The notes below the pieces were generated by a model. The model ran no database searches. It was not told the DNA's origin and was given only the letters and a program-made list of their open reading frames with translations. Below, piece by piece: positions 2,266 to 31,356 of a stretch of DNA of 64,000 nt. Each line of letters begins with the position of its first letter. Position 1 is the first letter of the stretch. This stretch comes from an uncultured Armatimonadetes bacterium (lineage in GTDB: Bacteria; Armatimonadota; Hebobacteria; Hebobacterales; Hebobacteraceae): NCBI GenBank assembly GCA_963716175.1, contig OY970296.1:3488001-3552000 (forward strand). Reading direction: 5' to 3'. Both the position numbers and the translations under genes were made by a program.

Positions 2266-2291
2266 CTGTAGGGCGCATGGCCGCCCTACAG
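2266..2291. repeat. GTAG-type REP-like palindrome
   Basis: CTGTAGGGCG-CATGGC-CGCCCTACAG; related half sites near 870 and 2125. Confidence 0.6.
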
Positions 2292-2435
2292 GAACGGCAG
2301 GGAAGCGCGTGTCCACCGAAACGAGAGCCGCGGGCGATGGGGGCGGGCAGGAGGCGAGCTCCTGCCCAACGGATAGCGACAAGGGACGCCCTGCTTGGGC
2401 GTCCCTGCTCGCGATATCAGTAAGATCAGGCCGGG

Positions 2436-6841: not shown

Positions 6842-6921
6842 GGCGGTACCCAGGAGTGTGACTGACAGGCCATACCACAACCAGGCTCCATGCTACCATC
6901 GCCGGGGCGGGGAGCTCTCCC

Positions 6922-7527: not shown

Positions 7528-7543
7528 TCCAGAAAGGATGGCT

Positions 7544-8605: not shown

Positions 8606-8697
8606 AGAGACCTACAGCAGCGGCGGGCAGGCGGTTCCGGGACTGGAGTTCCGAAACACCGCAATAGGAACGCCCGCCCCACAGCAAGGGAGGCGGG

Positions 8698-10146
8698 GTG
8701 ATGAGAGAGATCGTAGAGCAGGCGGTAGCTCGGGCCCAGGCAGCGGGGGCGAGCTATGCCGATGCTCGCGCCATCGCAAGCCGCCACCAGGCCATCCATA
8801 CCAAGAACGGGACCCCAGACGCGCTCACCGATGCCAGTGAAGTCGGCCTGGGGGTGCGGGTGATCGCGGAAGGCGCGTGGGGGTTTGCCAGCACGTCGTC
8901 ACTCACCCCCTCTGATATCGGCGTCACGGCCGAGCTGGCGGTTCGCATCGCTCGCGCCAGCGCCGCGCTTCGGGCGCAGCCGGTGGCGCTGGCGCCGCTC
9001 TCGCCGAGCCGAGAGGAATGGGCTTCGGAGTTCGAAGTGGATCCTTTCTCCGTGCCGCTGGAAAGGAGGCTCGCCCTCCTGCTGGAGGCCGACAGGGTGA
9101 TGCGGGAGGTGTCGGGGGTGCGCCTCGCCATTGGCCAGATGAACTTCATGCGGGAGGAGAAATGGTTCGCCAGCAGTGAAGGGGCGCAGACCCTCCAGAC
9201 GAGAGTTCAGTCCGGCGGCATGATACAGGCTGTTGCCGAGGGCAATGGCGAGGTGCAGCGCCGCTCCTACCCCAGCTCTTTGGACGGCGATAATGCCAAC
9301 CGGGGCTGGGAGTTCGTCGAAGGCCTGAACTTCCTTGCCCACGCCCGCCGGATAGGAGAGGAAGCAGTCGCCCTGCTGGCGGCCGACCCGTGCCCGGCCA
9401 AGGTCACGACGCTGATCATCGAGGGGAGCCAGCTCGCGCTCCAGGTGCACGAATCCTGCGGCCATCCCACCGAGCTGGATCGGGTGTTCGGGAGCGAGCG
9501 CAGCTATGCCGGCGCCTCCTTTCTCACGCCGGACAAGCTGGACCATTTCCAGTATGGGTCACCCCTGGTGAACCTCTACGCGGACGCCACGCTGCCGGGC
9601 GCGCTGGGCAGCTTCGGCTATGACGACGAGGGGGTGCCCGCCCAGCGGGTTGAGCTGGTGCGCGGCGGGCTGTTCACCGGGTATCTTTCGTCTCGCGAGA
9701 CCGCGGCCCGGCTCGGGAGGGGAGGCGGAGGGGCGATGCGGGCCAGCGGCTGGAACCGGGTGCCCATCATTCGCATGACCAACATCAACCTGGCGCCCGG
9801 CGATTCCAGCCTGGCGCGGATGATTGAGGAAACCGATGACGGCATCTACGCCGCCACCACCAAGAGCTGGAGCATTGACGACGTTCGCCTCAACTTCCAG
9901 TTCGCTTGTGAGATTGCCTGGGAGGTGAAGAAAGGCCAGCTTGGCCGCGTGCTGCGCAACACCACTTACCAGGGCGTCACCCCCGAATTCTGGGGGAGCT
10001 GTGACGCCATTGCCGGCCCCGATGAGTGGCGGCCCTGGGGGTTGCTCTCCTGCGGCAAAGGGGAGCCGGTGCAGATCATGTGGGTGGGCCACGGCGTGGC
10101 TCCCGCCCGTTTCCGCAAGGTGCGGGTGGGCATCGGAGGGGGGTAG
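8698..10146 (+). CDS. tldD: TldD family metalloprotease subunit
   Basis: HESCGHPTELD metal motif, YDDEG, PIIRMTN, CGKGEP. Confidence 0.9.
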   Translation: MMREIVEQAVARAQAAGASYADARAIASRHQAIHTKNGTPDALTDASEVGLGVRVIAEGAWGFASTSSLTPSDIGVTAELAVRIARASAALRAQPVALAPLSPSREEWASEFEVDPFSVPLERRLALLLEADRVMREVSGVRLAIGQMNFMREEKWFASSEGAQTLQTRVQSGGMIQAVAEGNGEVQRRSYPSSLDGDNANRGWEFVEGLNFLAHARRIGEEAVALLAADPCPAKVTTLIIEGSQLALQVHESCGHPTELDRVFGSERSYAGASFLTPDKLDHFQYGSPLVNLYADATLPGALGSFGYDDEGVPAQRVELVRGGLFTGYLSSRETAARLGRGGGGAMRASGWNRVPIIRMTNINLAPGDSSLARMIEETDDGIYAATTKSWSIDDVRLNFQFACEIAWEVKKGQLGRVLRNTTYQGVTPEFWGSCDAIAGPDEWRPWGLLSCGKGEPVQIMWVGHGVAPARFRKVRVGIGGG

Positions 10147-17758: not shown

Positions 17759-17888
17759 TAGAAGCTGTTTCATAACCTTCCCAGGGGAGGTTATGAGACA
17801 GCACTGCACAACGTCAGGCAGTGGCAGGCGCATTTCATGCGAGGGCGTGGTGCGGCCAGCCGGCAGGTAGGTTATGAAATGCGCTCTA
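17759..17888 (+). mobile_element. 130-bp MITE copy 1
   Basis: TAGAAGCTGTTTCATAACCT...AGGTTATGAAATGCGCTCTA; near-identical copies at 31185 and 59072; bounded by TA at both ends. Confidence 0.85.
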
Positions 17889-18106: not shown

Positions 18107-18472
18107 ATGAAGAGGTTCCTGGTAGGGTGCACTGTTCTGGGTCTCCTCTTGGGCATGGCAAGCGGTGTCTTCGCTGTCCAGAAGAGAGCCAAGGGCAAGG
18201 CGGCAGCAAAGCCGGCCGCGGCTGCGACCAAGGCGGCGACGGCTGAGCCTGCGGCCGCCAAGGCCGCTCCCGCGGAGAAGGCCAAGCCGGCGATGAAGAA
18301 GGCCAAGGGCAAGGCTGTCGCCAAGAAAGCGACCAAGAAGGTCGCAGTGAAGGCGAAGAAGGCCAAGGGCAAGGCTGTCGCCAAGAAAGCGACCAAGAAG
18401 GTCGCAGTGAAGGCGAAGAAGGCCAAGGGCAAGGCCGAGGCCGCGAAGCCGGTCGAGAAGGCGCCCCAGTAG
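18107..18472 (+). CDS. exported Lys/Ala-rich (histone H1-like composition) protein
   Basis: GGAG RBS, signal peptide ending VFA, then only K/A/P/V-rich repeats. Confidence 0.75.
   Translation: MKRFLVGCTVLGLLLGMASGVFAVQKRAKGKAAAKPAAAATKAATAEPAAAKAAPAEKAKPAMKKAKGKAVAKKATKKVAVKAKKAKGKAVAKKATKKVAVKAKKAKGKAEAAKPVEKAPQ
18295..18435 (+). repeat. exact 60-bp in-frame tandem repeat (2.3 copies)
   Basis: 18301-18360 is identical to 18361-18420. Confidence 0.95.
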
Positions 18473-18498
18473 TAGCAGTCTGGATAGCTGGCGAATGG

Positions 18499-18538
18499 GT
18501 GATGACCTCCGCGGAAAGCGGGGGTCATCACGCTTTTG
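18499..18538 (+). terminator. intrinsic terminator
   Basis: GTGATGACCTCCGC-GGAAA-GCGGGGGTCATCAC followed by GCTTTT. Confidence 0.65.
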
Positions 18539-18555
18539 TGGGGAGAAAGGGCTGG

Positions 18556-18676
18556 TGTTTCGATAGGGTTTATTCTGGAACCACGCGCGCCGAAAACCAC
18601 ATCTCGGAGGGGATAACCTGGAATTGCGGGCGTCTGACGAATGCCTGTTCGCCGGTTTGGGAGTGCTAAGCCGGAA
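18556..18676 (+). repeat. transposon left end with three putative transposase-binding sites
   Basis: GGTTTATTCTGGAA 18567-80, GGGATAACCTGGAA 18610-23, GTGCTAAGCCGGAA 18663-76. Confidence 0.75.
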
Positions 18677-18953
18677 AAAGAATGCGGCCGCGCTCCTGAG
18701 AGCGAGGTGTGACATTGGGATCTGCAAACAGGGACCCTCGGCGAGCGCCCTTCCATCGGACCAGGCCGAACGCTGCGGCGCGCGCCTGGTGATCGCCCTG
18801 CAGAAGGATCTCGTCATTGACCGCTCCACTCTCTTTCGCTGCGTCCAATTCCATCAGGCTTTCTCCCTGGAGGAGATTCTTGCCACGGGGAGACAATCTC
18901 AGCGGGGCCTAACCTGGAGCAAGCTACGCCTCATTTTGGCTCTTGACACGTGA
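18624..18953 (+). pseudogene. DUF1016 N-terminal (YhcG-N)-like fragment
   Basis: RLVIALQKDL..RSTLFRCVQFHQAF..EILAT..Q..LTWSKLRLIL pattern; no convincing start and overlaps the end sites. Confidence 0.5.
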
Positions 18954-18979
18954 CGGGGCAAAGGGCCGCGGCAAGTCGT

Positions 18980-19008
18980 TGGACAGCGCGGGATTCATGT
19001 GGTATACT
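18980..19008 (+). promoter_or_regulatory. sigma70-type promoter with extended -10
   Basis: TGGACA-N17-TATACT preceded by TGG. Confidence 0.65.
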
Positions 19009-19013
19009 CCCTT

Positions 19014-19320
19014 GCGCTTGATTCCGGCGGCATAGGCTGATCGGCGCAGATAGACAACCTGGCGGCCCGGGTGCCGTGTAGCGGGGCATATGACAGCTCC
19101 GTGTCGACTCATCCGGGTGATCGGCTCCAGTAGGGCCGGGCGGGAAGCACTGGGAACGTCTCCCTTGTGGAGGGGCGCAGTGCAATCCGCCGGTCCAAAA
19201 CCGAATAGATGCGCAGCGCCTTGGGCACTGGCCTCCGTACCACAAAGGACTAAGGCCTCAGACCCGCGGTCAAAGGATGAAAGCTGCCATGACCCCATTG
19301 GGGTTATGGCAGCTTTTGCG
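19014..19320 (+). ncRNA. candidate structured leader or ncRNA ending in a terminator hairpin
   Basis: Lies between the promoter and the first RBS; several nested stems; 17-bp hairpin AAAGCTGCCATGACCCC-ATT-GGGGTTATGGCAGCTTT. Confidence 0.5.
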
Positions 19321-19338
19321 TTTACAGGAGATCATCCG

Positions 19339-19995
19339 ATGAGCAAAGCTACCAAGAAGCAAGGCACGCACGGCAGCGAGATCGACCAGCTTCAGACCGA
19401 GATCGCCCGCCTCAGCGCCCGCGTCGAAGAAGTGGGTGAGAAGGAGTCCGCGGCCGCGGCCGAGGAGCAACGGCTATCAGGTGCGCTCGGCGCATTGATC
19501 GGCCAGGCCAGGTCGCCCACTGAGATTGGAAAGACCCGGCGGCGGCTCCGGCAGATCGACGAGCAGCGCGCGGATCTGCGCGCTGGGCGGCAGTGGTTGT
19601 TGAGCTCATTGAGCGAAGCGGAGGCCCGCCTCGCCGCGGCGCGGAGGGAGAAGGGACTCCACCTCCTGGAGCGGGATGTGACGGAGCTTCGGAGCCTGGT
19701 GAAGAAACTCGTCGCGCTCGAGGCCGAGTCGGCCAGTACAGGGCAATTGCTGGTGGTTGCCTATGGATCTCTACTCACCCACGCGCGAGAGCTTCGCCAC
19801 GCGACGCCAGGAGGGGGCCTCGTTGACGTGCCGGATCTCGACGACGTGTTGTGGGGAGCCCTTACCAGCGGAGGGCCCGGCGGCAGTGACCACCGTGGAG
19901 CGCTCACGCTGGCGGCCGTCGCCTCCCGAAATGCGCATGCCGAGCTGCGACACTTGTTGGCGATAACCGTCCAAAGTCGGGGGAACGCCGAATGA
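19339..19995 (+). CDS. coiled-coil hypothetical protein
   Basis: AGGAG RBS; heptad-rich helical sequence; ATGA coupling to the next gene. Confidence 0.7.
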   Translation: MSKATKKQGTHGSEIDQLQTEIARLSARVEEVGEKESAAAAEEQRLSGALGALIGQARSPTEIGKTRRRLRQIDEQRADLRAGRQWLLSSLSEAEARLAAARREKGLHLLERDVTELRSLVKKLVALEAESASTGQLLVVAYGSLLTHARELRHATPGGGLVDVPDLDDVLWGALTSGGPGGSDHRGALTLAAVASRNAHAELRHLLAITVQSRGNAE

Positions 19996-20693
19996 TCGCC
20001 TCCCGGGAGACAGCCGTGGCCAGCCCAGCGCCCGGCGGGCCCGAGAAATCCGCCGGCGAATCCAGCCCGGGATCCGCCCTCCCCGGCGGCGGATCGAGCC
20101 GGCCCGACTCTCTCAGCCCAGAGGAGGCTGCGCTCTTCGAGCTCATCGTTGGTCGCCTGGACAATCCGGAACTTGTTGACTCTCCCTTCGGTAGGGCCGT
20201 GCTAGTTTACCTCTGCCTGCGGCGCAGGGCGCCGGGCCTACAATTACTCCCTATTCTGCGGTGGCCGGCCGATTTGCTCTCCTCCTGCACTACCTCTCGC
20301 TTCCTTCATTCGGCCGTGCCTGACCTGGTTCCCGCTCCCCCGCCAGAGGAAGAGGATCTCGACCGTCCAAACGTCTGGCCCCCGCTGGCGCCCTCAGCCG
20401 GTACGATCGTCATCGGCCTGGAAACTTTTCACTGGCAAACCCCTTCCCTGGGCGAACTTGAAGGTTGCGAGAACTCTGTCGGCAGCCTTCATGATGGCCG
20501 CGTGCGGAGCTCGGCAAAGGCGTGTATCCGCCTCGCTGTTCTGTTCCTTCGCGCAAAGCATCCTGAGGTGACCGCCGAAATTGTCGGCGGCTTTGCCGCC
20601 AATGCCTGGGGGCCGCTCACCGATATGTTTAAGCGAGCTCTTCCTCATCTTTGGGCCGAGGGTACAGACCAGAAGGAGGGGATCCATGCTTAA
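19992..20693 (+). CDS. protein with two tail-assembly-chaperone-like repeats
   Basis: Two segments align by eye to the products of 20686 and 21133. Confidence 0.55.
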   Translation: MIASRETAVASPAPGGPEKSAGESSPGSALPGGGSSRPDSLSPEEAALFELIVGRLDNPELVDSPFGRAVLVYLCLRRRAPGLQLLPILRWPADLLSSCTTSRFLHSAVPDLVPAPPPEEEDLDRPNVWPPLAPSAGTIVIGLETFHWQTPSLGELEGCENSVGSLHDGRVRSSAKACIRLAVLFLRAKHPEVTAEIVGGFAANAWGPLTDMFKRALPHLWAEGTDQKEGIHA

Positions 20694-21090
20694 GGACGAC
20701 TTCACCGTCATGGGAACAGACTACCTCTGGAGCCCGCCGACAGCAGCGGATCTGGCTGAGTGGGAGCGTGAGATCGGTCAGCGGCCGCTGACCGACCAGA
20801 CCGCCCTGCGTTCGGTTCACGGGAGGGGCTATTTGCTGTGGCTGCTTTTCCGGCGGGATCAACCTGATCTCACCCTCGATCGGGTTCTGGCCTGGGGCCC
20901 GAACGTCATCGCCTCCCCGAACATCTCTCGCCTCCTCAACAAAGCGTGCCCGCAGCTCGGGATCGAGGAGGTCAAGGCGGACCCCCGACACATGTATGGC
21001 AGACAGACGACCAACCGCCAGAAAGGTCTCGCAACGAACCGGTCCTCCGGAGTCGAGCGTCTCCTGGACATCGAGGGGCCAGCCCGATGA
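20686..21090 (+). CDS. tail-assembly-chaperone-like paralogue
   Basis: AAGGAGG RBS; YLWSPPTAADLAEWE..SVHGRGYLLW..QPDLTL. Confidence 0.6.
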   Translation: MLKDDFTVMGTDYLWSPPTAADLAEWEREIGQRPLTDQTALRSVHGRGYLLWLLFRRDQPDLTLDRVLAWGPNVIASPNISRLLNKACPQLGIEEVKADPRHMYGRQTTNRQKGLATNRSSGVERLLDIEGPAR

Positions 21091-21132
21091 ATCGTGCGAT
21101 CGACGGTCTCTGCTGAGAAAGGATCACAAGTC

Positions 21133-21519
21133 ATGCCTTCAACCGGCACCATCGAAGTCGATGGCCACACCTATACCTGGCTCTCGCCCACGCTTGGGGA
21201 CTTGGAGCGGTTCGAGGCTACCATCGGGCCAATCTCCGACTCCGCTGCCATAAACAGCGTCAAGGGCCGCATTTGGCTCTGCTGGGCCTGCCTCAGAGAG
21301 AGCCAGCCGGACCTAACCTTGAAGCAGATCGGCGAGTGGCCAGCGGATGCCTGGAACGCCATCTGGGCCACGATCCAGCAGGCAATTCCGCTGTGGGGCC
21401 CCGCCAGCGGCGAGGACGAGAAGAAGAAGGAGAAGACCTCGGCCTCGCCCGACACCTCTGCCTCGCCTGCGCCCGACTCTGGGGGTGGCCCCCTTCCGTC
21501 ACCCGTCGGGAGCGGGTAG
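21133..21519 (+). CDS. tail assembly chaperone-like protein (gpG-like), with probable -1 extension to 21635
   Basis: Directly upstream of the tape measure gene; IEVDGHTY..PTLGDLERFE; the -1 frame encodes ARLWGWPPS..RVGDLLDLL. Confidence 0.65.
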   Translation: MPSTGTIEVDGHTYTWLSPTLGDLERFEATIGPISDSAAINSVKGRIWLCWACLRESQPDLTLKQIGEWPADAWNAIWATIQQAIPLWGPASGEDEKKKEKTSASPDTSASPAPDSGGGPLPSPVGSG

Positions 21520-21555
21520 GCGATCTTCTCGACCTGCTCAGGGACTTAGAGAGCG

Positions 21556-23070
21556 ATGCCACAGACAGAGAAGCTCGAAATCCTAGTCCAGGCCCGCGAC
21601 CAGGCCAGCGCCGTCCTCAAGGGCGTCGCCGGTAACCTGCGCGGCGAGCTCAAAGCCGTCGAAGGCGCGAGTGCCGGTCTCGCCAGCACCAGCAGCCGCA
21701 TGGCCGGCACCACGGTCGCGGGATTCGGGCAGATGCGGGGCTCCGCCAAGGGGTTCACCTCCCAGCTCAATGCCACCAGGCTGGTGATGGCTGGTGTCGC
21801 CGTAGCCGCCGTCGGGATGGCCACCAAGTTCATTGAGAAGGCCGCCGAGGCCGAAGCCGTCGCCACCAAGCTCCGCGTCGCCATCGCCGCCAGCGGCCAG
21901 GGCATCAACCAGAAGGCGCTCGAGGAACTGGCCACCCATCTTGGGGAGGTGACTACCTTTAGCAAGGAAGCCGTCGAGGGTATGGAAGCGTTCCTTGTTG
22001 GCGCCCATCTGAATCAGGAACAGATCGAACGCCTCAGTCCGGCCATTATTGACATGGCTACCTACCTCGGCACCGACCTCACCTCTGCGGCCAAGGCCAT
22101 CGGCATGGCCCTCAAGAGAAACTCCACCATGCCCCTCATGCGCCTGAAGTTGGCGGTTGATAAGGCGAAGTTCGCGCTCGATCCGCTCGGCGCCATCCTC
22201 GATGCCATCAAAGGCAAGGCCGGCAACCTGGGTGAAGCCGCCGGCAGGGACGCTGGCGGCCAACTGGCCATCTTCACACACCAGGTGGAGCAACTCGAGA
22301 TCGCTCTCGGCACTATGCTCCTGCCGACACTCAAGCTCGTGGTTCCACTCATGAAAGACCTAGCCAAGGCCGCGACCGCGATCGCCCAGGTCCCGGGTGT
22401 CAGCCAGGTGGTGTCAGGCGGCATGCTTCTTGCTGGGGGCCTCGCGGTTGCCGGCCTGGTTGGTGGGCCCCTCGCAAAGGGGGCCAAAGGAGCGGCGGCA
22501 GTGGGCAAGTGGGCCCTTACCAGGGCGGGAGTCCTGGAGGCCGCCGCCCCCGTCGCCGAGGGCGTCGCCGAGGGCGCCGCCGTTGGCTTCGGCGCACGCG
22601 CGCTGGGGCTACTCGGCGGCCCGATCGGAGCGACCGCGGTCGTCGCCGGCACTGCCGCTACCATCGCCGGCCCGCCGCTCGCCCGCTGGAGGGAAGCCAG
22701 GCAGGAAGATGCCATCACTGCCCGCGCCCGGGCCTTCGTCGCCCGCAGGCGCGCTGCCGGCCTGCTAATCCCGGGCGAACCCTTCACCGGCCCGCCTCTC
22801 CAGGAGCCCGCCCGCGTGGCCCCTCCCACCGGCCCCGAGCCCACCCCCCAACAGCAATACGAATCCTTCCTCAGGGGCCAGGGCTGGGTGCTGCCCGCCC
22901 CCGCGCCCGCACCGGCGAAGATCACCAACACCGCCCCCAATGTCGCCGTCTCCCAGGCCGCCAACAACGACCTCCTCATCCGCGTCCAGATGCCCGAAGT
23001 CCCCCAGGGCCTGGTGGACGATTACACCAACGAATACCTCGAAGATGTTTCCTATGCCGAGGAGGAGTAA
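21556..23070 (+). CDS. short phage tape-measure-like protein (504 aa)
   Basis: N-terminal LEILVQARDQAS typical of tape measure proteins; Ala/Gly-rich helical body; IIDMATYLGTDLTSAAKAIGMAL and EQLEIALGTMLLP segments. Confidence 0.8.
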   Translation: MPQTEKLEILVQARDQASAVLKGVAGNLRGELKAVEGASAGLASTSSRMAGTTVAGFGQMRGSAKGFTSQLNATRLVMAGVAVAAVGMATKFIEKAAEAEAVATKLRVAIAASGQGINQKALEELATHLGEVTTFSKEAVEGMEAFLVGAHLNQEQIERLSPAIIDMATYLGTDLTSAAKAIGMALKRNSTMPLMRLKLAVDKAKFALDPLGAILDAIKGKAGNLGEAAGRDAGGQLAIFTHQVEQLEIALGTMLLPTLKLVVPLMKDLAKAATAIAQVPGVSQVVSGGMLLAGGLAVAGLVGGPLAKGAKGAAAVGKWALTRAGVLEAAAPVAEGVAEGAAVGFGARALGLLGGPIGATAVVAGTAATIAGPPLARWREARQEDAITARARAFVARRRAAGLLIPGEPFTGPPLQEPARVAPPTGPEPTPQQQYESFLRGQGWVLPAPAPAPAKITNTAPNVAVSQAANNDLLIRVQMPEVPQGLVDDYTNEYLEDVSYAEEE

Positions 23071-23110
23071 CCCTCAATGCCAGCGGCAAGCGGGAGTCGG
23101 GAGAGCCAGA

Positions 23111-23440
23111 ATGACAGAGCAGGTTGCAACGGCAGTCCGGGGAGTGGCGGCAATCAGAGCCTCCGTCGCGGTGAGAGTCAGGCCCGACCTTGTGGCGACA
23201 CTCAGTCCGGAGGTGGCCGCGAGGCTGTTCGGCCTTGGCGATGAGGAGAAGCCCCACGAGTATCTGACCGTCAACGAAGCGGCGGAAATGCTCCGCGTCG
23301 TGCCCCAGACCGTCCACCATATGATCCGTGATGGCCGCCTCCGGGCCCAACGCGTGTGCGACAAGCGCGTCCTCATTAAGCGCGAGGAGGTGTTGCGCTG
23401 CTTTGAGCCTATTGAGCCGCAGAGGTACGAGCTCGACTGA
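23111..23440 (+). CDS. excisionase-family (HTH_17) DNA-binding protein
   Basis: YLTVNEAAEMLRVVPQTVHHMIRDGRLRAQRV. Confidence 0.85.
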   Translation: MTEQVATAVRGVAAIRASVAVRVRPDLVATLSPEVAARLFGLGDEEKPHEYLTVNEAAEMLRVVPQTVHHMIRDGRLRAQRVCDKRVLIKREEVLRCFEPIEPQRYELD

Positions 23441-23444
23441 GGGA

Positions 23445-24224
23445 ATGACGGCTTCCATGGCAACGTCCACCGCAACATCGAAGAGCCCCCGGCCCCAGAT
23501 CGGTCTGCTCGAGTCCACCCCGAAGCAGGTGCTCCCGATCGGGGTGCGTGCTATCGGCCGGTCAGGCGTCCTCGAGCTGATGAGGATTGGCGGCGGACTC
23601 TCCTACAAAGAGGTCGGCAAGCGGGCCGGTATGCCACCCGTCAAAGCCATGCGCCTGATCCGCGGCCAGTACCTTAAGGCTCGCCACCGGGATCTCCGGC
23701 GGATCCTCGATGTCCTCTGGGCCGCGCTTCCGGCCATCCAGCAACCGGGTCCGCTGCAGGTAATCGAGGAGGCAGAGCGTCGCTTCGCCCTCCCGCGCAC
23801 CGCGAGGCCCATGTATCTTACCCTCGATGAGGCCGCCGACCTGCTCAAGGTGAACCGGGCGAAGATGCGCCGGCTCGCCAGCGACCGCCCCGAACTTCAC
23901 GCCATCAGGGTCGGGTGGGGCGTCAGGATTCCCCGCCAGGCGATAGAAGAGTATATCCTCGCCCCGCGCCGGGCCGCGGCCTCCTCGAAGTTCATGTCGC
24001 CGGCGGCTGTGGCCGCCCTGTTCCGAGTGCATGAAGATGTGATCGGGTATGCCATCCGCACTGGCCGCATCCGCGCCCAGCAGTCAACGAAACAGAAGTG
24101 GGGCCGCTGGCGCATTCCCATGGCCGAGGTCAGGCGCATCGCCCGCTTCGGAGTCACCAATCTGCCCCGGCTCAAAAGCTGGGGGCCCACACACAGAGAC
24201 CATGATCGCCGCCCTACTGCGTAG
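23445..24224 (+). CDS. multi-HTH protein (XRE-like plus two HTH_17 domains)
   Basis: GLSYKEVGKRAGM; YLTLDEAADLLKV..IRVG..VRIP; FMSPAAVAALFRV..IRTGRIRA..WRIP. Confidence 0.75.
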   Translation: MTASMATSTATSKSPRPQIGLLESTPKQVLPIGVRAIGRSGVLELMRIGGGLSYKEVGKRAGMPPVKAMRLIRGQYLKARHRDLRRILDVLWAALPAIQQPGPLQVIEEAERRFALPRTARPMYLTLDEAADLLKVNRAKMRRLASDRPELHAIRVGWGVRIPRQAIEEYILAPRRAAASSKFMSPAAVAALFRVHEDVIGYAIRTGRIRAQQSTKQKWGRWRIPMAEVRRIARFGVTNLPRLKSWGPTHRDHDRRPTA

Positions 24225-24659
24225 TCCTTCATATCTCGAGCGATCTGCCTCGGCCTTCCCATGCCGCGGCTCGGCGGAACCGCCTCTCGGGTTCGGGCGG
24301 AGCCTGGCGTGTCAGCGCCAGGCCGAGGGGTCGGCGGTGTTCCAGCACCGCCGACCCGCGCTCTCATCTGCCTTGATAGGGGTAGGGCGCCTGGCATGCG
24401 GACACCAGGCGCGGGGGCCAGTGGTGCTAGCACACGGCTGGCCCCGGATCTCGCTCACGCAGATTCACCCAGGGCAACGGCGGCTTTCCGCCTTGGCCGC
24501 CGATCTCCAGCCAGGGGCGAGGCCCGCACGCGGCCCGATCCCACCCCTCGCCCCCGGGCTGCCCTCATCCTTCTCTTTCTCGGGCCGGGGCGACTCTGCC
24601 CTCCCAGCTCTCGGCCAAACGACGCTCTACGAGGCCCCAGGAGAAGAGCATTGATCGGG

Positions 24660-25307
24660 ATGCACCCATACCCATCCCCTGCCCCGAACGCCTCTCCTAC
24701 CCCCCATGACACCCCGTCACAGGGGCATTCCCTGCGCGACCTCAAGTTGCAGGCCGGACTCTCCGTGCGCCAGATCGCCGATCGCACCCGGATCCACTAT
24801 CGCCGTGTCGCTCGCGTGCTTTCCGAGAGAGGGCGCCCCCGGCGCCGGGAACTCAGGGTCCTGCGGCAATGCCTGGATAATGAACTCCGCCGCCGGCGCA
24901 GCTCCGATCCCGGCTTCCTGCGCTCTATCCAGGAGGTGGCCGTTCCCTTCCTGCATGCCCGCCTGAGGCCTAGCGGTGACTGCGCTGCGGGTGAGGATCC
25001 CGCTTTGCATCGAGGGAGTTCACTATCTCCCGTCGAAGACGTCGTTGGCGGCGAGGGAATCGCAGCAGGCGGCCCCTGCGCTCGGCGGAATGGGTCCCGT
25101 CAGGCCGCGGGAGCTCCTGCGACACTATTCGGCCGGCGGCGGCTGAGTGGCAAGCGAGCACCTGCGATTCCCTCCCGCCGCTCTCATCCAGGGAATCAGA
25201 TTTCCCCGCTCCTGTGCGAGGCCACCACGGTCTGCCCCACCTCCACCGCGGAGGCGCTCAGGGCCCACGCGCCGGCGCCCGCCCCGGAGAGGAATCCGTC
25301 CGAATGA
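24660..25307 (+). CDS. XRE-family HTH protein with low-complexity tail
   Basis: LRDLKLQAGLSVRQIADRTRIHYRRVARVL; start uncertain. Confidence 0.55.
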   Translation: MHPYPSPAPNASPTPHDTPSQGHSLRDLKLQAGLSVRQIADRTRIHYRRVARVLSERGRPRRRELRVLRQCLDNELRRRRSSDPGFLRSIQEVAVPFLHARLRPSGDCAAGEDPALHRGSSLSPVEDVVGGEGIAAGGPCARRNGSRQAAGAPATLFGRRRLSGKRAPAIPSRRSHPGNQISPLLCEATTVCPTSTAEALRAHAPAPAPERNPSE

Positions 25308-25744
25308 GCGCGAGATCCTCCGCGGCCGCCACAACCACGCTCGCCCTCCCCGCCGCCGTCGCCCGGGGCCTCCTCGATTGGCGCCGGCGCCTGCAGCAGG
25401 TGGAGCTCGCTCGCCGTCTCTTCTCGCCGCAGGCCGACCAATTGCAGCGGGACCTGTGGGGCGAGGTGGCCCATGCCGTGCTCAGTGCTGGCGACGAGGA
25501 GGCGATCGCCCAGCTCCTGCCCGCCGTTGCGCGGCGGCTGCGGATCAGCCCCGCCAGCCTTTCCCGGGTACTGGAGGTGGGCCGGGCCTGGCCCCAGGAG
25601 ATCCCGGAGCGCCCCTGGATCGTTCTCTGCGCCCTCGCCCGCCTGCCCCAGGAAGAGCGAGATCGCCTGGACGCGGCCCTGCCTCTGGACGCGCCCCTGA
25701 GCGCGGTCACTTCGCCGGCACAAAAAGCGGACGGAGACGCTTGA
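25304..25744 (+). CDS. hypothetical protein, DUF1016-N-like
   Basis: ATGA-coupled; LWGE..LPAVARRLRISPASLSRVLEVGRAWP..PWIVLCALARL resembles the 26137 product. Confidence 0.55.
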   Translation: MSARSSAAATTTLALPAAVARGLLDWRRRLQQVELARRLFSPQADQLQRDLWGEVAHAVLSAGDEEAIAQLLPAVARRLRISPASLSRVLEVGRAWPQEIPERPWIVLCALARLPQEERDRLDAALPLDAPLSAVTSPAQKADGDA

Positions 25745-25768
25745 CAGGGCGAGGATATGGTATATAAT
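25741..25768 (+). promoter_or_regulatory. consensus sigma70 promoter of the transposition operon
   Basis: TTGACA-N16-TATAAT. Confidence 0.75.
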
Positions 25769-25799
25769 GCCTGATAATGCCAGATCAGAAGAAGATAGC

Positions 25800-26009
25800 A
25801 TGGCTGAGCGCCTGATCAAGGCTCGTGAGGCGGCCGCCATCCTTGGCGTGAAGCCGCTCACGATCTATAGGTGGGCTGCCCAGGGGAAACTAGCCTCGCT
25901 CCGCGTAGGCCCCGGGGGGAAGATGCTTCGCTTTCGCTATGCTGACATCAGGGCCTTGATCAAGGAGAGCCAGGCCCAGGACAAGCCCGGCGACGAGGGG
26001 GCTGGGTAA
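25800..26009 (+). CDS. excisionase-family (HTH_17) protein
   Basis: LIKAREAAAILGVKPLTIYRWAAQGKLASLRVG..LRF. Confidence 0.85.
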   Translation: MAERLIKAREAAAILGVKPLTIYRWAAQGKLASLRVGPGGKMLRFRYADIRALIKESQAQDKPGDEGAG

Positions 26010-26039
26010 TGGCCGCCCGCACGGAGAGGGCAAAGGTGC

Positions 26040-26136
26040 TGTCAGACGGTCTGACGGGCGCAATAGCGCGCCGAACCTGTGACATTCACCGTGTCAGACG
26101 GTCTGGCACGCGTAATAGCGCCCGAAAGTGTGACAT
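26040..26136. repeat. 52-bp-period tandem repeat related to the transposon end motifs
   Basis: TGTCAGACGGTCTG...AATAGCGC...TGTGACAT twice. Confidence 0.85.
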
Positions 26137-26829
26137 ATGAAGGCCCCCGCCAGGAAGCAGAGCGACAATCCCCAGATCCCGCTCCCCCTGGAGCTGGAGC
26201 GCGCTCTTCCGTCGCTGCGGGAGCGCCTCGCTCAGATTCAGTCCGCCCTCGGGGGCAAGCCGGATTACGCCGCGGTCAACCGCTGGCGCTGGGAGCTCGG
26301 GATCCAGATCTCGGACGCGTTGCGGAGCCATGCCCCGGAGGCCACCATGCGACCCCATGTGCTGGCGCTCGCGCCGCGCCTGGGGTGCAAGGCCTCCCTG
26401 CTTTACGGGTTCGTGAACGTCGCTAGGGCCTTCCCCGATGAGCCTCCGCCCCAGTATTGGGACACCCTCGTGCACCTTGCGGCCATCGAAGATCCGCAGC
26501 GGCGCCAGGAAGCTCTGCGTCGGCTTCCGGATTGGGCGCCAGTCCGCTTGTCCAGGCCCACCCGGGAAGAGGTCGAGTCCGAGAAGATGCTGCGAGAGAT
26601 CAAGCTCAGCGCCCAGCACGAGCTCGACGCGGCCCGCCATTTTGTCCACAAGCTTCCTTCCACACAGCAGCTCTTCGTCGCCCAGGAGATACTGGAAGGC
26701 TTCGACGAAAAGGCCGTCGCCGAACTCACCGACCCACCGCTCCAGATAGCTGAGATCTGCAAGGCCACCGAGAGGCTGAGAACGCTCCTGACCTGTGCCG
26801 CCGCAGGCCCCAATGAACCACCAACCTGA
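26137..26829 (+). CDS. DUF1016 N-terminal-like protein
   Basis: AVNRWRWELGIQI, FVNVARAFP, WDTLVHLAAIEDPQRR. Confidence 0.6.
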   Translation: MKAPARKQSDNPQIPLPLELERALPSLRERLAQIQSALGGKPDYAAVNRWRWELGIQISDALRSHAPEATMRPHVLALAPRLGCKASLLYGFVNVARAFPDEPPPQYWDTLVHLAAIEDPQRRQEALRRLPDWAPVRLSRPTREEVESEKMLREIKLSAQHELDAARHFVHKLPSTQQLFVAQEILEGFDEKAVAELTDPPLQIAEICKATERLRTLLTCAAAGPNEPPT

Positions 26830-28666
26830 TGAGACAATCGCCGCCCTCATAGCCCAGGTCAATGCGCTGCTCGCCGAAGGGGCGGGCCCCGAGATCGTCG
26901 GCCCCCTCCTCCAGCGGCTGAAGCAGTTATCGAAGCACGGTTCTTGCATCCACAACCTGCGGCGCATCGCCACCTTCCGCGCCGTGAAGAGAGATTCTGC
27001 GGTCAGTCAGGCCGCGCAGCGCTGGATCAAGCGCGGCCAGCGCGCCGCCCTCAAGCCGAGCAGGGCGGCGGGCCCGGTCACCAGGCAGCAGATAGGCCTC
27101 TGCCAGCAGTTCCTCGCGATAGATGCCCAGCCCGAGCCGCTCAGGTCCCGCCTCCTGGAGGCGAAGGCCCACGATCTGAACCTATCATTGCCGACCCTCC
27201 TCGGTAAGCTGAGGAAGGCGAAGGCACAGGGCCCGGATGGCCTCGCCCGCCGGCGCCGCCGCGATCGGGGGCGCTGCCGGGAGCCCGAGGAGGTTCAGGG
27301 GTTCTTCCGCGATCGGCGGATCAACAAGGCCACCCGCCACGAGCCGGTGCAGCTCTCCATCGATGCCACCCGGCGCGAGTTCCCCGATCTCCGGATCTCC
27401 GCCGATGCTTTGCGCCGCCTCGACCGGGGCATCGGGAGGCCGCTCACCATGAGCAAGGAAGAGAGGCGCCGGCGCTACCTCCCGAGCGGCCAGTGGGAGG
27501 TTGCGCACCCAAACCACACCTGGGTGCTCGACTGCACCGTCGCCGATCTCTTTGTCTGGGACGGCGATCCCGATGAGAAACCCTACCGGCCTCACCTCAC
27601 CGCCATCATAGATGAGTGCACCCAAAGCTGCATGTGGGCCATCTACACGAAGGAGACGCCCAGCACGGCCGTCCTCCAGGGCGTCCTTCTTCACGCCATT
27701 CTTCCCAAGAGCGATCCCGACTGGCCTCAGTGTGGTTTCCCCAGGTATCTGCACTGCGACAACGGCAAGGTTCAGACCTCGCACTGGCTCAGGCAAGTCT
27801 GTGCTGCCTGCCACACGAAGCTGGATCTCATGGGCGAAATCCGCCATGCCGGGATTCGCTCCCCCTGGCAGGACGGTCATATCGAAAGCTTCTTCGGCAT
27901 CGCCCACCGCCGTTTTGAGGGCCAGCTCGGGGCCTGCTATTGCGGGAATGACCCCAAGCGCCGGCCGGATTGCTTCGCCGACCCCGAGGGGAAAGGGCCT
28001 CGCGTCTGGCAGCAGTATCCGACGCTCGATATCCTCAATGAGGGCTTCCGCATCTGGATCAGCGCCGACTATCACCACGGCATGAAGCATAGCCGGCTGA
28101 AGATGAGCCGCGCCAGGTATTGGGACCTGCACGCGGATGGCTATGTCGCCGTGGTGCCGGAGGCTTACCTCCGGTACGAGCTGATGCAGCGCGACCAGCG
28201 CAATGTTGTCGGCCCCAGGGTTAGCATCTTCAATCGCGCCTACCGGCATGAGGATCTCATTGCCTATGACGGCATGAGACTCGAGGTCCGTTGGGATCCC
28301 GCTGATCTCACCAAAGTGGGCGTGGTCAGCCCCAGCGGGGCCGTCATTGTCGCCGCGCGAGAGCCGGTCGGCTCAGTGGATGATCCCAAGGATCTCTCCG
28401 CCCTCAAGGGCTGGCGCCGGCGCAGCAAGGCCAAGCTGGAGGCCATTGACACCGCCGCGCGGGTGCTGGCGGGAGGCACTGAGGCTGATCGCCGCACCTT
28501 CGAGGAGAGACTGACGAAGCATCGGGAGAGGCAGCCGATCCGCTTCACCGGCCGGCGCCCCCAGGTTCTCAAGCCAAAGCAGGAAGAGCAACCGGACGCC
28601 ACTGAGGCGCTCGACCTGATCCGGGGCGCAGGGCAGCGCGGCGTGGCCATGGCGGAGCGAGTCTAA
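26813..28666 (+). CDS. MuA/TnsB-like DDE transposase
   Basis: PNHTWVLDCT (D), LHCDNG (D), GHIESFF (E); Mu-transposase C-terminal-like EVRWDPADL. Confidence 0.92.
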   Translation: MNHQPDETIAALIAQVNALLAEGAGPEIVGPLLQRLKQLSKHGSCIHNLRRIATFRAVKRDSAVSQAAQRWIKRGQRAALKPSRAAGPVTRQQIGLCQQFLAIDAQPEPLRSRLLEAKAHDLNLSLPTLLGKLRKAKAQGPDGLARRRRRDRGRCREPEEVQGFFRDRRINKATRHEPVQLSIDATRREFPDLRISADALRRLDRGIGRPLTMSKEERRRRYLPSGQWEVAHPNHTWVLDCTVADLFVWDGDPDEKPYRPHLTAIIDECTQSCMWAIYTKETPSTAVLQGVLLHAILPKSDPDWPQCGFPRYLHCDNGKVQTSHWLRQVCAACHTKLDLMGEIRHAGIRSPWQDGHIESFFGIAHRRFEGQLGACYCGNDPKRRPDCFADPEGKGPRVWQQYPTLDILNEGFRIWISADYHHGMKHSRLKMSRARYWDLHADGYVAVVPEAYLRYELMQRDQRNVVGPRVSIFNRAYRHEDLIAYDGMRLEVRWDPADLTKVGVVSPSGAVIVAAREPVGSVDDPKDLSALKGWRRRSKAKLEAIDTAARVLAGGTEADRRTFEERLTKHRERQPIRFTGRRPQVLKPKQEEQPDATEALDLIRGAGQRGVAMAERV

Positions 28667-29397
28667 TGCAGGAATGGCGGCTGGGCAGTCAGATCATCTA
28701 TGCCATCGGTCCCCTCGAGGAGTATCTCGCGGCGCTTGATCTCTCGCCGCGCCTGGAGGGATGCGAGCAGCGCATCATCCTCGTGGTGGGCGATCCCGGC
28801 ACAGGGAAAACCGTTGCCGCTCGCATCTATGCCCGAGACTGTGACCGCCATCCGATCTACATCGCCATGCCCGCGGCCGAGATGCTCCGCCCCCGGGATC
28901 TCCTCGATATCCTCGGCCGCCCGGTCGGGCTCAGCTTCGACCTCCATTACCCCCGCTATGAGGTGGGGCAGCAGCTCGCCCGTGACAGCCTCGATCGCCC
29001 CCGCATCTTCCTTCTCGATGATGCCCATGCCATGGCCAGGGGCGGCTTGCTCGACATGCTCAGGTGGTTGCATGATGCCGGCGGCCACACCTTCGTGCTC
29101 ATCGGGCCGCCATCCCTGGAGAGGGAGTTTGTGGCCCGGCGCGACCTCGCCGGTCGCGTCGCCCTGCGCCACCAGGTCCGCTTACCCAGTGTAGACGAGA
29201 TCGCTCCCCTCTTCGACAGCCTCTCTGCTGAGGCACTGGAGCAGATCCACCAGGAGACAGGCGGCCGCATGCGCCAGGTGATAGCGCTCGAGAAATGGCT
29301 CGGCGAGCTCATCGAGCAGCGCAAGCTCGCCCCCTCGGATCTCGTGCCGAAGCAGGTGCAGATGGTGGCCCGGCACTTCATGGTGAAGGTGGCGTGA
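28666..29397 (+). CDS. MuB/TnsC-like AAA+ ATPase
   Basis: Walker A GDPGTGKT, Walker B FLLDDAH, FVLIG, LAGRV, TGGRMR; TAATG coupling to the transposase. Confidence 0.88.
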   Translation: MQEWRLGSQIIYAIGPLEEYLAALDLSPRLEGCEQRIILVVGDPGTGKTVAARIYARDCDRHPIYIAMPAAEMLRPRDLLDILGRPVGLSFDLHYPRYEVGQQLARDSLDRPRIFLLDDAHAMARGGLLDMLRWLHDAGGHTFVLIGPPSLEREFVARRDLAGRVALRHQVRLPSVDEIAPLFDSLSAEALEQIHQETGGRMRQVIALEKWLGELIEQRKLAPSDLVPKQVQMVARHFMVKVA

Positions 29398-29430
29398 TCC
29401 CTCAGCCATGGAGCGAAATGGGAAGGAGCA

Positions 29431-29670
29431 ATGAGCGGCACGAAAAGGGTGCGGGTCGATCACACAGCGGGCAGCCTAGCCAAGGTCGGAGTCGGGATCT
29501 TAGAAGGCGGGGGCGGCTACCTTCTAGAGTGCCGCATCTGTCTCCAGATATGGTCGCCGATGCAGGACATCCCGCTGGAAGAACTGACGACGAGGCGGCG
29601 GTTGCCCCGCGGCTGGTGGCATTGCCCCAACGGGCGCAATCATCCCAGCAAGGAGCCAGCGAGTAGCTAA
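29431..29670 (+). CDS. small putative zinc-ribbon protein
   Basis: AAGGAG RBS; CRIC..WSP..LPRGWWHCPNG. Confidence 0.6.
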   Translation: MSGTKRVRVDHTAGSLAKVGVGILEGGGGYLLECRICLQIWSPMQDIPLEELTTRRRLPRGWWHCPNGRNHPSKEPASS

Positions 29671-29999
29671 TGGGCACGAAGCGGCTTCCCCGAGATACAG
29701 AGAAGCAGAAGGCCTGGGCCCGCAAGCTCGGCGCCCAGGCAATCATCCCGCCAATCTGCTGCTTCCGTTACTACCGGGAGAGCATCGGGCAGTATTACCC
29801 CCGGCTCTTCCGCCGTGCCTTCGAGCTCGGCGCCGTCGCCGCGCTCAAGCAGGTGCTGCAGGAGATCGCCCAGCCCGATGATCCCTGCGCCGGGCTCCCC
29901 CCACACCTGGTCAAGTCTGCCCGGGCCACCAAGCGCGCCCGGGAGAGGAAGGCGGCACAGATCCACCCCGGCCGGGGGTCTAAGAGGGCGGCAGCATGA
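29670..29999 (+). CDS. basic hypothetical protein
   Basis: TAATG-coupled to the upstream ORF. Confidence 0.55.
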   Translation: MGTKRLPRDTEKQKAWARKLGAQAIIPPICCFRYYRESIGQYYPRLFRRAFELGAVAALKQVLQEIAQPDDPCAGLPPHLVKSARATKRARERKAAQIHPGRGSKRAAA

Positions 30000-30089
30000 T
30001 CCGAAGCAGACCGGGGCACCCTAAGGGGTTCTCCGGTTCACAGATAGCTGGCGGCGGCAGGGGCAACCAATGCGAGGAGGAAATCGCCC

Positions 30090-30473
30090 ATGCCTGAGAG
30101 GACGGTCGAGGGGTCGGACCCGGCGCGGCCAGCCGGGGTAGAGGAGCAGGAGGCGAAGATCATGCAGCGGTACTGGCGCCTGGAGATCATCACCGACGAA
30201 CCCGAGAGGGGACCGTGGCAGGAACTTCGCGACTTCTGGGCCCAGCTCAGCGGACGGATCCAGTCAGACATCGCGAAAGTGAGGGCGTTCTCGGCGAGCC
30301 CCGGAGCGCCTGAGAGCAAGAGAGCATGGATCGCGGTGTGCGCACAGGATGCCGAGCACGACCTCGGCGACGCTGCGGTGCTAGTGCGGTTCGCGATCGC
30401 GGAGCTGGAGCGGCTGGATTCCTCGCTAGGGGAAGCCGCAGAGGAAATGTCGCAGGCGCTCAAGGCCAGGTAG
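30090..30473 (+). CDS. hypothetical helical protein
   Basis: GAGGAGG RBS. Confidence 0.6.
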   Translation: MPERTVEGSDPARPAGVEEQEAKIMQRYWRLEIITDEPERGPWQELRDFWAQLSGRIQSDIAKVRAFSASPGAPESKRAWIAVCAQDAEHDLGDAAVLVRFAIAELERLDSSLGEAAEEMSQALKAR

Positions 30474-30725
30474 CAGGGGCCGGAAGGCCCCAAGAGGTTC
30501 GTGAAAGCTCATCAGTAGCCAAATCCGACCCCTGCCGTCGCCATCATAACAGGACCGGGCCGCTCCCACAAGCCCCATACAGAGGGCCGCGCTCTCCTCT
30601 GAACGCAGGCGGCGATCGCCCTGCAGATCCCGCCCTCCTGGGCCCCAGATCCGGGCGATCCCAGCGCCCTCCCGGGTCCTCGCCGGGGCTCCGAATCCCC
30701 TCTTCACCCCCCTCATCCCCGCCCC

Positions 30726-30820
30726 GTGTCAGACGTCCGCAGCGTCGAAATAGCACCACAGTATTCCGGGTCAACTCGCGCGACAGACGTCCGTATTCCA
30801 CTTTATCCCCGCGCGCCACA
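30726..30820 (-). repeat. transposon right end
   Basis: Reverse strand reads TGT-N8-GGGATAAAGTGGAA (30796-809) and GAGTTGACCCGGAA (30764-77); CAGACGTCCG occurs twice. Confidence 0.8.
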
Positions 30821-30835
30821 GCTGGGGGGATAATG

Positions 30836-30886
30836 TAAGCATTTGTTTGCAGAAGCCTTGACATAGAAACATGTGTTTGCTATACT
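30836..30886 (+). promoter_or_regulatory. sigma70 promoter with two LexA/SOS-like boxes
   Basis: TTGACA(30858)-N17-TATACT(30881); AAAC-ATGT-GTTT in the spacer and AAGC-ATTT-GTTT upstream. Confidence 0.7.
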
Positions 30887-31165: not shown

Positions 31166-31184
31166 GGACCGGCGATCTGCAGAT

Positions 31185-31314
31185 TAGAAGCTGTTTCATA
31201 ACCTTCCCAGGGGAGGTTATGAAACAGCCCTGCACAACGTCAGGCAGTGGCAGGCGCATTTTATGCGAGGGCGTGGTGCGGCCAGCCAGCAGGTAGGTTA
31301 TGAAATGCGCTCTA
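31185..31314 (+). mobile_element. 130-bp MITE copy 2
   Basis: Same element as 17759; splits a GCAGATTACGCAGAT repeat at its TA. Confidence 0.85.
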
Positions 31315-31356
31315 CGCAGATGGCATAGATGCAGGGGAGTCTGTAGGGCCAGCGGC

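Follow-up and report, generated by a model that had tools for sequence, protein, structure and literature searches.

A compact Mu-type transposable element with tail-assembly cargo in an uncultured Armatimonadetes bacterium, and its possible spread as a phage satellite

The described systems closest in design to the element reported here are the transposable (Mu-like) siphophages, such as Pseudomonas phages B3 and D3112 and coliphage Mu, the laboratory mini-Mu derivatives, which are packaged by helper Mu, the phage satellites P4, phage-inducible chromosomal islands (PICI) and PICI-like elements (PLE), which integrate site-specifically by means of an integrase, and the transposons Tn7 and Tn5053/Tn402, which combine a transposase domain set like that of the element with an adjacent AAA+ regulator and a 5-bp duplication. 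All well-described satellites are known to integrate with tyrosine or serine recombinases, and none is known to carry a chaperone together with a tape measure. Here we analyse a 64,000-nucleotide (nt) stretch of contig OY970296.1 from an uncultured Armatimonadetes bacterium (forward strand, positions 3,488,001 to 3,552,000), referred to as the window. It contains a 12,265-bp element at 18556-30820, which we identify with considerable confidence as a compact Mu-type transposable element with tail-assembly cargo. With moderate confidence we further assign it to an undescribed compact Mu-type lineage, termed class A, that would descend from Mu-like siphophages and spread probably as a helper-dependent satellite; helper dependence as such, which would make the element a natural 'mini-Mu', is given slightly less than an even chance.

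The element shares with Mu-like phages a MuA-type transposase and an adjacent MuB-like ATPase, TG...CA ends with several predicted subterminal sites and a 5-bp duplication, and chaperone, tape-measure and, in its relatives, capsid genes homologous to those of the phages. It differs in size, about 12 kb compared with an estimated at least 30 kb, and lacks Gam, terminase, portal, protease, neck, tube, tail tip and lysis genes, whereas its full-size phage relatives, termed class B, possess virion genes. In Mu-like phages the transposase and ATPase genes lie by the left end and read inward ahead of the late genes, which is the opposite of the arrangement found here; moreover, the element belongs to a separate ATPase clade and has a set of lineage-specific genes (g10/g12, g16, g17 and the HTH_17 set). 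Mini-Mu derivatives keep the ends of Mu, with or without A and B, while most of the genome is gone (PMC3145075). The element resembles them in having both ends and transposition functions but no virion set, so that particles would need a helper, and differs in being natural, in forming a conserved and diverged lineage, and in carrying regulators of its own along with a chosen set of morphogenesis genes.

Among phage satellites, some shrink the capsids of their helpers and others build small capsids of their own, as stated in parts of a 2024 review of hitcher elements, which in the same parts ties transposases only to insertion sequence (IS) and miniature inverted-repeat transposable (MITE) elements (PMC11389934). 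Among the papers covered by our literature search, none was found that describes a satellite built on a Mu-type transposase. Like P4, PICI, capsid-forming PICI and PLE, the element is small, has its own mobility module, carries a few helper-type morphogenesis genes and has an incomplete virion set, and its relatives encode their own capsid protein. In contrast to these satellites, it has a DDE transposase and an AAA+ ATPase rather than an integrase with primase or replicase, its insertion shows a transposon-type 5-bp duplication with no integrase domain found by Pfam and PHROGs, and it carries a chaperone and a tape measure; its helper dependence is putative.

Ends and transposition genes of the element

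For comparison, the 17 window proteins were mapped by tblastn onto 30 related loci, L014-L043, comprising one genome locus (an Armatimonadota metagenome-assembled genome), 28 metagenome loci and one viral contig; a single-protein scan of viral contigs found nothing. Class A consists of L017, L024/L025, L026/L027, L030, L036, L039 and L041 together with the window element, with element sizes of about 12-13 kb.

The element begins with TGT (18556-18558) and finishes with ACA (30818-30820), bordered by the repeat GCTGG at 18551-18555 and 30821-30825, which sequence and shuffle test mark as left and right copies of a target-site duplication. In two 500-nt zones, three TG...CA pairs with a 5-bp repeat were found compared with a shuffle mean of 0.98, and by themselves such a pair and repeat are weak evidence for element ends. 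The 18551/30821 pair is singled out because its termini match at 16 of 30 inverted positions, a value reached by only 0.5% of 2000 shuffles. Furthermore, a GGGnnTAnnnTGGAA site occurs in both ends in identical register (positions 11-25), and CGGRCGTCTGWC has only three exact matches in the 64 kb, at 18627 (+), 30728 (-) and 30782 (-), each facing inward. The left end (18556-18640, +) comprises the TGT terminus, the predicted sites L1 (GGGTTTATTCTGGAAC, 18566-18581, +) and L2 (GGGGATAACCTGGAAT, 18608-18623, +) and the motif CGGGCGTCTGAC (18627-18638, +), while the right end (30727-30820, -) comprises the motifs CGGACGTCTGAC (30728-30739, -) and CGGACGTCTGTC (30782-30793, -), the predicted site R1 (GGGGATAAAGTGGAAT, 30795-30810, -) and the ACA terminus.

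Like termini in relatives back those of the window element. The same site type is found at the left ends of L036, which has TGT at nt 27 and a GGAGATAACCTGGAAT site starting at 55 compared with 53 in the window, and of the class B locus L015, which reads TGT-N7-GGGGATAATCTGGAAT in the register of the window's right end, followed by three more CTATTCTGGAAT sites. The right termini of L027, L024 and L039 have the form ...CGCG(N)ACA, resembling that of the window, with unrelated flanks beyond. The exact ends and 5-bp duplication proposed in an earlier note, made from the letters of this DNA alone, are thus upheld.

In L027 a candidate left terminus, TGTCGG near nt 659, has no 5-bp repeat that matches the right flank. 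The same locus has, at 1270-1297 and upstream of its coiled-coil gene, the sequence TTAAGCCCCACACGCGACA, which is like its right terminus in direct orientation and may represent what is left of an end or else an additional binding site.

The Mu-type DDE transposase (623 aa, 26795-28666, +) combines rve and Mu-transpos_C domains and matches phrog_310 at 6.8e-56. The rve match (PF00665, 2.3e-6) has 28.2 bits, below the cut-off of 32.6, and the PF09299 match (3.3e-9) lies above its cut-off; the candidate catalytic residues D, D and E are invariant in an alignment of 17 homologues. It is followed by a MuB-like AAA+ ATPase (243 aa, 28666-29397, +) with the Walker A motif GDPGTGKT and matches to AAA_22 (2.1e-13) and to phrog_296, 'DNA transposition protein' (1.5e-13). 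The pair (26795-29397) is located 1.4 kb from the right end, reads toward it and comes after late-type genes. This bears out two statements of the earlier note, namely that transposase and ATPase are intact and that they are placed after the tail module, unlike in Mu-like phages, whose canonical order is found in class B.

A set of 5.8 billion proteins contained 19 close homologues of the transposase, at 38-65% identity, plus two distant ones (24-26%). Compared to 50,697 phage records, the transposase gave one weak match (25% identity) and the tape-measure-like protein g06 gave none. By these comparisons the element is far from cultured phages.

The Tn7 and Tn5053/Tn402 families likewise pair an rve and Mu-transpos_C transposase with an AAA+ ATPase, have TG...CA ends and produce a 5-bp duplication. 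The element could on this ground be a cargo transposon of the Tn7-like or Tn5053-like kind (TnsB/TniA plus TnsC/TniB), unconnected with the life cycle of any phage. However, Pfam and PHROG searches matched no TnsA, TniQ, TnsD or resolvase (TniR) in any of its ORFs (open reading frames), the best PHROG matches of its transposition genes are the phage transposase family phrog_310 and, for the ATPase, phrog_296, and all relatives with enough context are either compact phage-gene elements or Mu-like phages with Gam and terminase. Given this context, with all kin phage-related, such an identity seems largely refuted and we consider it very improbable; the Tn7-like part of the label given in the earlier note finds no support.

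Tail-related cargo and its counterparts in full-size phages

Four chaperone-like domains are spread over three ORFs, which are followed by a single tape-measure-like ORF. Two of these domains (20061-20369 and 20394-20654) belong to g03 (233 aa, 19992-20693, +), seen as two matched stretches in a profile search (P0029); g04 (134 aa, 20686-21090, +) is 51% identical to its L036 copy, and g05 (128 aa, 21133-21519, +) is assigned from phrog_2115, a fold match and synteny in phage contigs. The tape-measure-like g06 (504 aa, 21556-23070, +) is assigned from phrog_1533, TMP_2 matches of its family and a homologue in the phage contig L052. Matches of the window proteins alone are weak, with 2.6e-4 for g05 to the tail protein family phrog_2115 and 4.5e-4 for g06 to the tape-measure family phrog_1533. 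When 1.84 billion proteins were searched with a profile of the chaperone-like domain, 44 representatives matched. The AlphaFold2 (AF2) model of g05 (predicted local distance difference test, pLDDT, 84.8) shows a beta hairpin and five helices, and the PDB entry closest to it in fold is 2ob9, the tail assembly chaperone of HK97 (E 0.13, probability 0.89, TM 0.42-0.48); among viral models, 9 of the 50 matches listed bear the name tail assembly chaperone or protein, none of them with E below 1.9e-3. Pfam TMP_2 matches three of nine members of the tape-measure-like family, the best at 7.1e-7, and PHROG tape-measure families match these proteins at 1e-4 to 2e-3. Profiles of both families gave only chance-level matches to PDB sequences. 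A predicted complex of tape measure and chaperone, run without controls, scored 0.00 and has no bearing on binding either way.

Synteny in full-size phages provides the decisive evidence. Class B loci, represented by L015, L020, L028 and L035, show the canonical layout of transposable phages, that is, a gene of about 240 aa with a g01 homologue, transposase, ATPase and early genes; L028 and L035 include transposase, ATPase, Mu Gam (PF07352) and a GpA-type large terminase (TerL), and overlapping L028 with a 22.2-kb viral contig led to the size estimate of at least 30 kb for class B phages. Four viral contigs, L049-L052, were retrieved with the L027 capsid protein and a tape-measure alignment and are linked to class B via Gam and TerL, the latter being 52-86% identical to that of L028 (84-86% in L049 and L052). 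Their genes run from Gam over a 292-aa gene, TerL, portal (phrog_113, 1.3e-56), minor head protein, and protease with capsid to a phrog_1731 virion structural protein, Neck1 (phrog_26) and further tail genes, and then to a g05 homologue, a g06 homologue, tail-tip-sized ORFs and an endolysin-like gene. The g05 homologue (40-44% identical, a range that spans L050-L052) is the gene directly upstream of the tape measure in L050 and L052/L045, and the L051 contig stops inside the chaperone homologue with its neighbour off the contig. The g06 homologue of L052 has 582 aa, occupies the tape-measure position and is 33% identical. Since homologues of g05 and g06 adjoin in the tail module of full-size Mu-like phages, the cargo is, as judged from this gene order, tail-assembly related, as the earlier note had proposed.

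A short tape measure as a satellite adaptation was ruled out: the full phage L052 has a homologue of only 582 aa, so that the short form appears native to this phage group. Longer homologues (883-2520 aa) were not found, which is weak evidence, and a further tape-measure homologue (P0023), 71% identical, is encoded on a 21.9-kb contig. Relative to g05, an ORF in the -1 frame (21273-21635) extends past the g05 stop into the start of the tape measure and has the geometry of a candidate G/GT-type frameshift product. In L052 a 684-aa frame (6691-8745) covers the head maturation protease (phrog_328) together with the major head protein (phrog_371), perhaps through gene fusion, perhaps because two genes were merged by the ORF call. 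In L033 a 496-aa ORF (2068-3558) consists of approximately 190 N-terminal residues of a class-B-type ATPase fused to a capsid protein that shares 84% identity with the L027 one; phage head and endolysin-like genes follow, and the locus is either a deleted phage or a chimeric assembly.

The earlier note had listed further gene types as lacking, and this was borne out: no ORF of the element had a Pfam or PHROG match to capsid, portal, terminase, tube, baseplate, lysis, integrase, primase, TnsA, TniQ or Cas, and tblastn with the capsid and coiled-coil proteins of relatives gave no match in the window. Cargo made up of tail genes only is special to the window copy, as relatives covering the region carry a Mu gpT-type capsid gene.

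Cargo of this kind might also act against phages, with chaperone and tape-measure decoys that poison the tails of Mu-like phages for the benefit of the host or of the element. The four tandem chaperone-like domains, seen in this copy only, could fit diversification against several targets, and cargo proteins 33-44% identical to those of phages might still bind phage partners. In contrast, PADLOC defence families matched none of ten cargo proteins, no toxin, nuclease or abortive-infection domain was seen in the element's ORFs with Pfam, and the capsid of relatives is up to 92% identical to that of phages, which fits co-assembly better than blocking. We regard tail interference as improbable.

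A compact lineage and its possible mode of spread

The gene order of the element, namely chaperone-like, tape-measure-like and HTH (helix-turn-helix) genes, g10/g12, transposase, ATPase and g16, recurs in L025, L026/L027 and L036, and part of it in L017, L024, L030, L039 and L041. Class A ATPases are 42-59% identical to that of the window, compared with only about 30% for those of class B. In class A loci that reach far enough to the left, a Mu gpT-type major head gene lies just before the chaperone, and coiled-coil genes lie before that. The capsid of L027 matches PF10124 at 9.6e-33 and phrog_371 at 1.6e-40 and that of L036 matches PF10124 at 2.5e-27, whereas of the L025 capsid gene only the last approximately 25 residues are on the contig. 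In L036 about 680 nt separate the left terminus from the coiled-coil gene, and L027, from a source record of 35.8 kb, has a host greA gene upstream. Because the termini of L036, L027, L024 and L039, the host greA flank and the gene order recur, the compact form appears, on comparison of these loci, to be real and recurrent, with at least three further distinct and diverged elements. The window element is thus not a unique deletion copy, and the outcome named in the earlier note as refuting its reading did not arise. A tandem-prophage or assembly artefact was rejected, since the genome containing the window is a finished single contig and since independent assemblies show the order again.

The main rival to a satellite is a relic of a Mu-like prophage, that is, a deletion derivative, low-activity transposon or inert island in which chaperone and tape measure are leftovers. 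All cargo whose origin can be recognised indeed represents part of the late region of the phages, the capsid gene is gone from the window copy and its g03 looks partly degenerate, the genome holds one copy and no helper was found in it, and the lineage is rare among reference genomes. On the other hand, elements with no more than 30-59% protein identity keep a common gene order that is not that of phages, with long ORFs intact; that ORFs of 119-664 aa remain open where proteins are just 30-50% identical speaks for selection. The distance from capsid to chaperone gene is 3-91 nt in class A and 3.7-4.0 kb in phages, and since L027 and L036 have this junction in common, the deletion would be old and the genes would have stayed open since. 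Furthermore, the transposase and ATPase motifs are intact, and lineage-specific genes are conserved, as exemplified by the 31 invariant columns of the g16 alignment. Weighing these points, we consider a mere relic unlikely, though well ahead of the interference and Tn7-like explanations in probability.

Phylogenetic trees, calculated without the near-duplicates L019, L021, L024, L026 and L043, point to an exchange of modules. In the ATPase tree, class A (seven rows including the window) and class B (ten rows) separate with 100/100 support each. In the transposase tree, the window and L017 are nested among class B rows (94/96) and the other five class A rows group together (80/99); the transposase closest to that of the window, 51% identical, is that of the class B locus L015. 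Homologues of g01 (38-52% identity) were found in 15 of the 30 loci, every one of class B and none of class A. The L027 capsid is 78-92% identical to phage capsids, while for the chaperone and tape measure of L027 the identity to their phage counterparts is just 38-49%. The grouping of transposases, g01, the L015 end sites and the L027 capsid together suggest that compact elements and phages keep exchanging modules and, therefore, would meet in the same cells. Sequence comparison thereby lends good support to an origin of class A by descent from, and continued gene exchange with, full-size Mu-like siphophages of sediment and freshwater metagenomes.

Since the element lacks terminase, portal, tube, tail tip, lysis and capsid genes, it presumably cannot make particles by itself. 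As a helper-dependent satellite it would function as follows. At each end of the element the transposase would bind the predicted GGGGATAAnnTGGAAT and CGGRCGTCTGWC sites; with the target delivered by the ATPase, insertion would proceed by 5-bp staggered cuts. Two operons would be transcribed from promoter-like sites at 18980 and 25741, with the element's HTH proteins controlling them via the palindromic repeats at 26040-26121. Upon infection of the cell by a related Mu-like phage, the element would replicate by its own or the phage transposition machinery and be packaged by this helper, which would supply terminase, portal, capsid and tail parts; only then would the element spread between cells, and its chaperone and tape measure would join the helper's tail assembly. 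More tentatively, class A may represent the first phage satellites that use Mu-type transposition, insert near-randomly, are packaged by the helper's terminase and contribute their own chaperone, tape measure and usually capsid to the particles, with the window copy relying on the helper capsid. As part of this same tentative claim, class A would amplify by replicative transposition upon infection by Mu-like siphophages with which it shares end sites and swaps transposase and capsid genes.

Several observations weigh against a functional satellite of this kind. The capsid gene retained by all three relatives that cover the region is missing from the window copy, the first chaperone-like domain of g03 is devoid of the conserved N-terminal hairpin motif, and the GC content at third codon positions (GC3) of g03 is 0.67, compared with about 0.8 elsewhere, indicating a weaker coding bias; the copy may thus be decaying or may be a further reduced form. 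The fold evidence for a chaperone is weak (E 0.13 in the PDB and at best 1.9e-3 among viral models), no Pfam family matched any of 43 aligned members of the chaperone-like family, and the best TMP_2 match, at 29.6 bits, falls below the curated cut-off of 30.2. The same gene order and like left and right termini were found elsewhere, but no single contig shows both ends of a compact relative, left ends being known from L036 and right ends from L024, L027 and L039. No class A ATPase was found at E <= 1e-20 in 400 sampled genomes of the phylum. Among contigs of four metagenome runs, neither a variant junction nor a joint across the element was listed, at a depth too low for this to indicate absence. 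Finally, a satellite has no known clear benefit from a tape measure and a chaperone of its own.

In the 4.56-Mb single-contig host genome the element is single-copy, with no second transposase match. Searches of this genome for a class-B-type transposase, a gpT capsid (PF10124) and a GpA terminase (PF05876) found none elsewhere, and thus no helper prophage was found by transposase, capsid and terminase searches; a search for the PF06074 portal, which matched neither the host genome nor any control genome, is uninformative. The four DNA runs, all from one freshwater sediment metagenome study, contained parts of the element in contigs of depth 2-4 identical to the window, and one contig spans the occupied left junction (18407-18614) with 0 differences. 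In a contig of run X2 (depth 2.1), 31691 is joined to 19035 via 13 unrelated letters, which may be an assembly chimera.

If the satellite reading holds, a MuA/MuB-based lineage would add a further way of parasitising phages. Flanking host DNA would enter particles from every insertion site, as in Mu-type packaging, which would make the element a strong gene-transfer agent. Class A would also amount to a natural test of what a minimal hitcher retains of the late genes, chaperone and tape measure always and capsid usually; this pattern would suggest that the tape measure has a part, so far unrecognised, in delivering the packaged DNA or in its identity. Even on a more modest reading, the locus provides a compact and diverged MuA/MuB pair with defined ends in an uncultured group without a close cultured relative.

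Further genes and the insertion point

Genes were accepted on the basis of ORF lists, GC3 frame analysis, Pfam and PHROGs. All 17 accepted ORFs lie on the plus strand and have coding-type GC3, and the minus-strand ORFs look like shadows, which is consistent with the single-strand arrangement seen in the earlier note. The first gene, g01 (109 aa, 18624-18953, +), is homologous to part of the approximately 240-aa gene that precedes the transposase in class B contigs and had no Pfam or PHROG match. It is followed by a promoter-like site, TGGACA-17-TATACT with a TG extension (18980-19008, +), assigned from its match to 10 of 12 consensus positions, and by an 18-bp hairpin (pair I19, 94% complementary, 19280-19316, +) directly before g02. 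The latter encodes a 218-aa coiled-coil protein (19339-19995, +) without a match by Pfam, PHROGs or tblastn, which occupies the position of the coiled-coil genes preceding the capsid gene in L027 and L036 and from this position may have a scaffold-like role. The slot from the coiled-coil gene to the tape measure is 1705 nt long in L027, 1401 nt in L036 and 1561 nt in the window, where three ORFs with four chaperone-like domains fill it, a tandem set found in this copy only.

Downstream of the tape measure lie several putative regulators. HTH_17 is carried by three ORFs: g07 (22940-23440, +; HTH_17 at 1.1e-11), the start of which overlaps g06 so that the true start is probably later, g08 (23328-24224, +), which has HTH_17 and HTH_31 and is kept in class A at 33-52% identity (L017, L025, L026/L027 and L036), and g11 (25767-26009, +), a small HTH_17 or excisionase-like DNA-binding protein that matches phrog_66 at 3.2e-12. 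The HTH_31 matches of g08 and g09 are weaker, and the limits of g09 (24261-25307, +) are uncertain. Its HTH_31-like part (24700-24970, residues approximately 151-236) is 38-44% identical to stretches of L052 (5828-6040), L050 (7662-7916) and L051 (5953-6204), which in these full phages form the start of the minor-head-protein gene region, between portal and capsid. The paralogues g10 (25214-25744, +) and g12 (230 aa, 26137-26829, +) are both kept in class A, as seen by tblastn, g12 directly before the transposase. A perfect sigma-70 consensus, TTGACA-16-TATAAT (25741-25768, +; 12 of 12 positions), stands ahead of g11, g12, transposase and ATPase. Two 30-nt repeats of family D1, 52 nt apart and each beginning with the palindrome TGTCAGACGGTCTG, follow at 26040-26121 (+); they have a GTCAGACG core in common with the end sites and a third copy at 30727-30756 in the right end, and are candidates for an operator or enhancer.

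Between the ATPase and the right end, g15 (79 aa, 29431-29670, +) has homologues in L036 and L039, and g17 (127 aa, 30090-30473, +) has homologues in L024 and L039. The intervening g16 (109 aa, 29670-29999, +) is a signature gene of the compact lineage, 51-54% identical in five class A loci and absent from the class B hits in the tblastn mapping. It gave no usable Atlas match, and its AF2 model (pLDDT 71, predicted TM score, pTM, 0.40) led to nothing below E 0.6 in a fold search. In and around the element, Rfam gave no match and a tRNA scan found no gene.

On one side of the insertion is a terminator-like hairpin (18499-18531), on the other a promoter-like site (30858-30886), and because of these flanks the element is placed between two host genes, both of which have homologues in related genomes. 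An empty insertion site was not found among 40 related genomes, which are of family-level or more distant relationship and in which the locus is not syntenic. Outside the element, a dispersed repeat that spans about 130 bp and contains an internal palindrome, MITE-like or resembling repetitive extragenic palindromic (REP) sequences, is present on either side (17759-17888 and 31170-31320), at distances of approximately 670 nt on the left and 350 nt on the right; at least 40 copies with 94-98% identity are present in the genome. The host gene to the left (18107-18472) encodes a Lys/Ala-rich histone-like protein with internal repeats, and a metagenome contig from run X1 lacks 60 nt of it (18295-18354), which suggests a polymorphism in repeat number.

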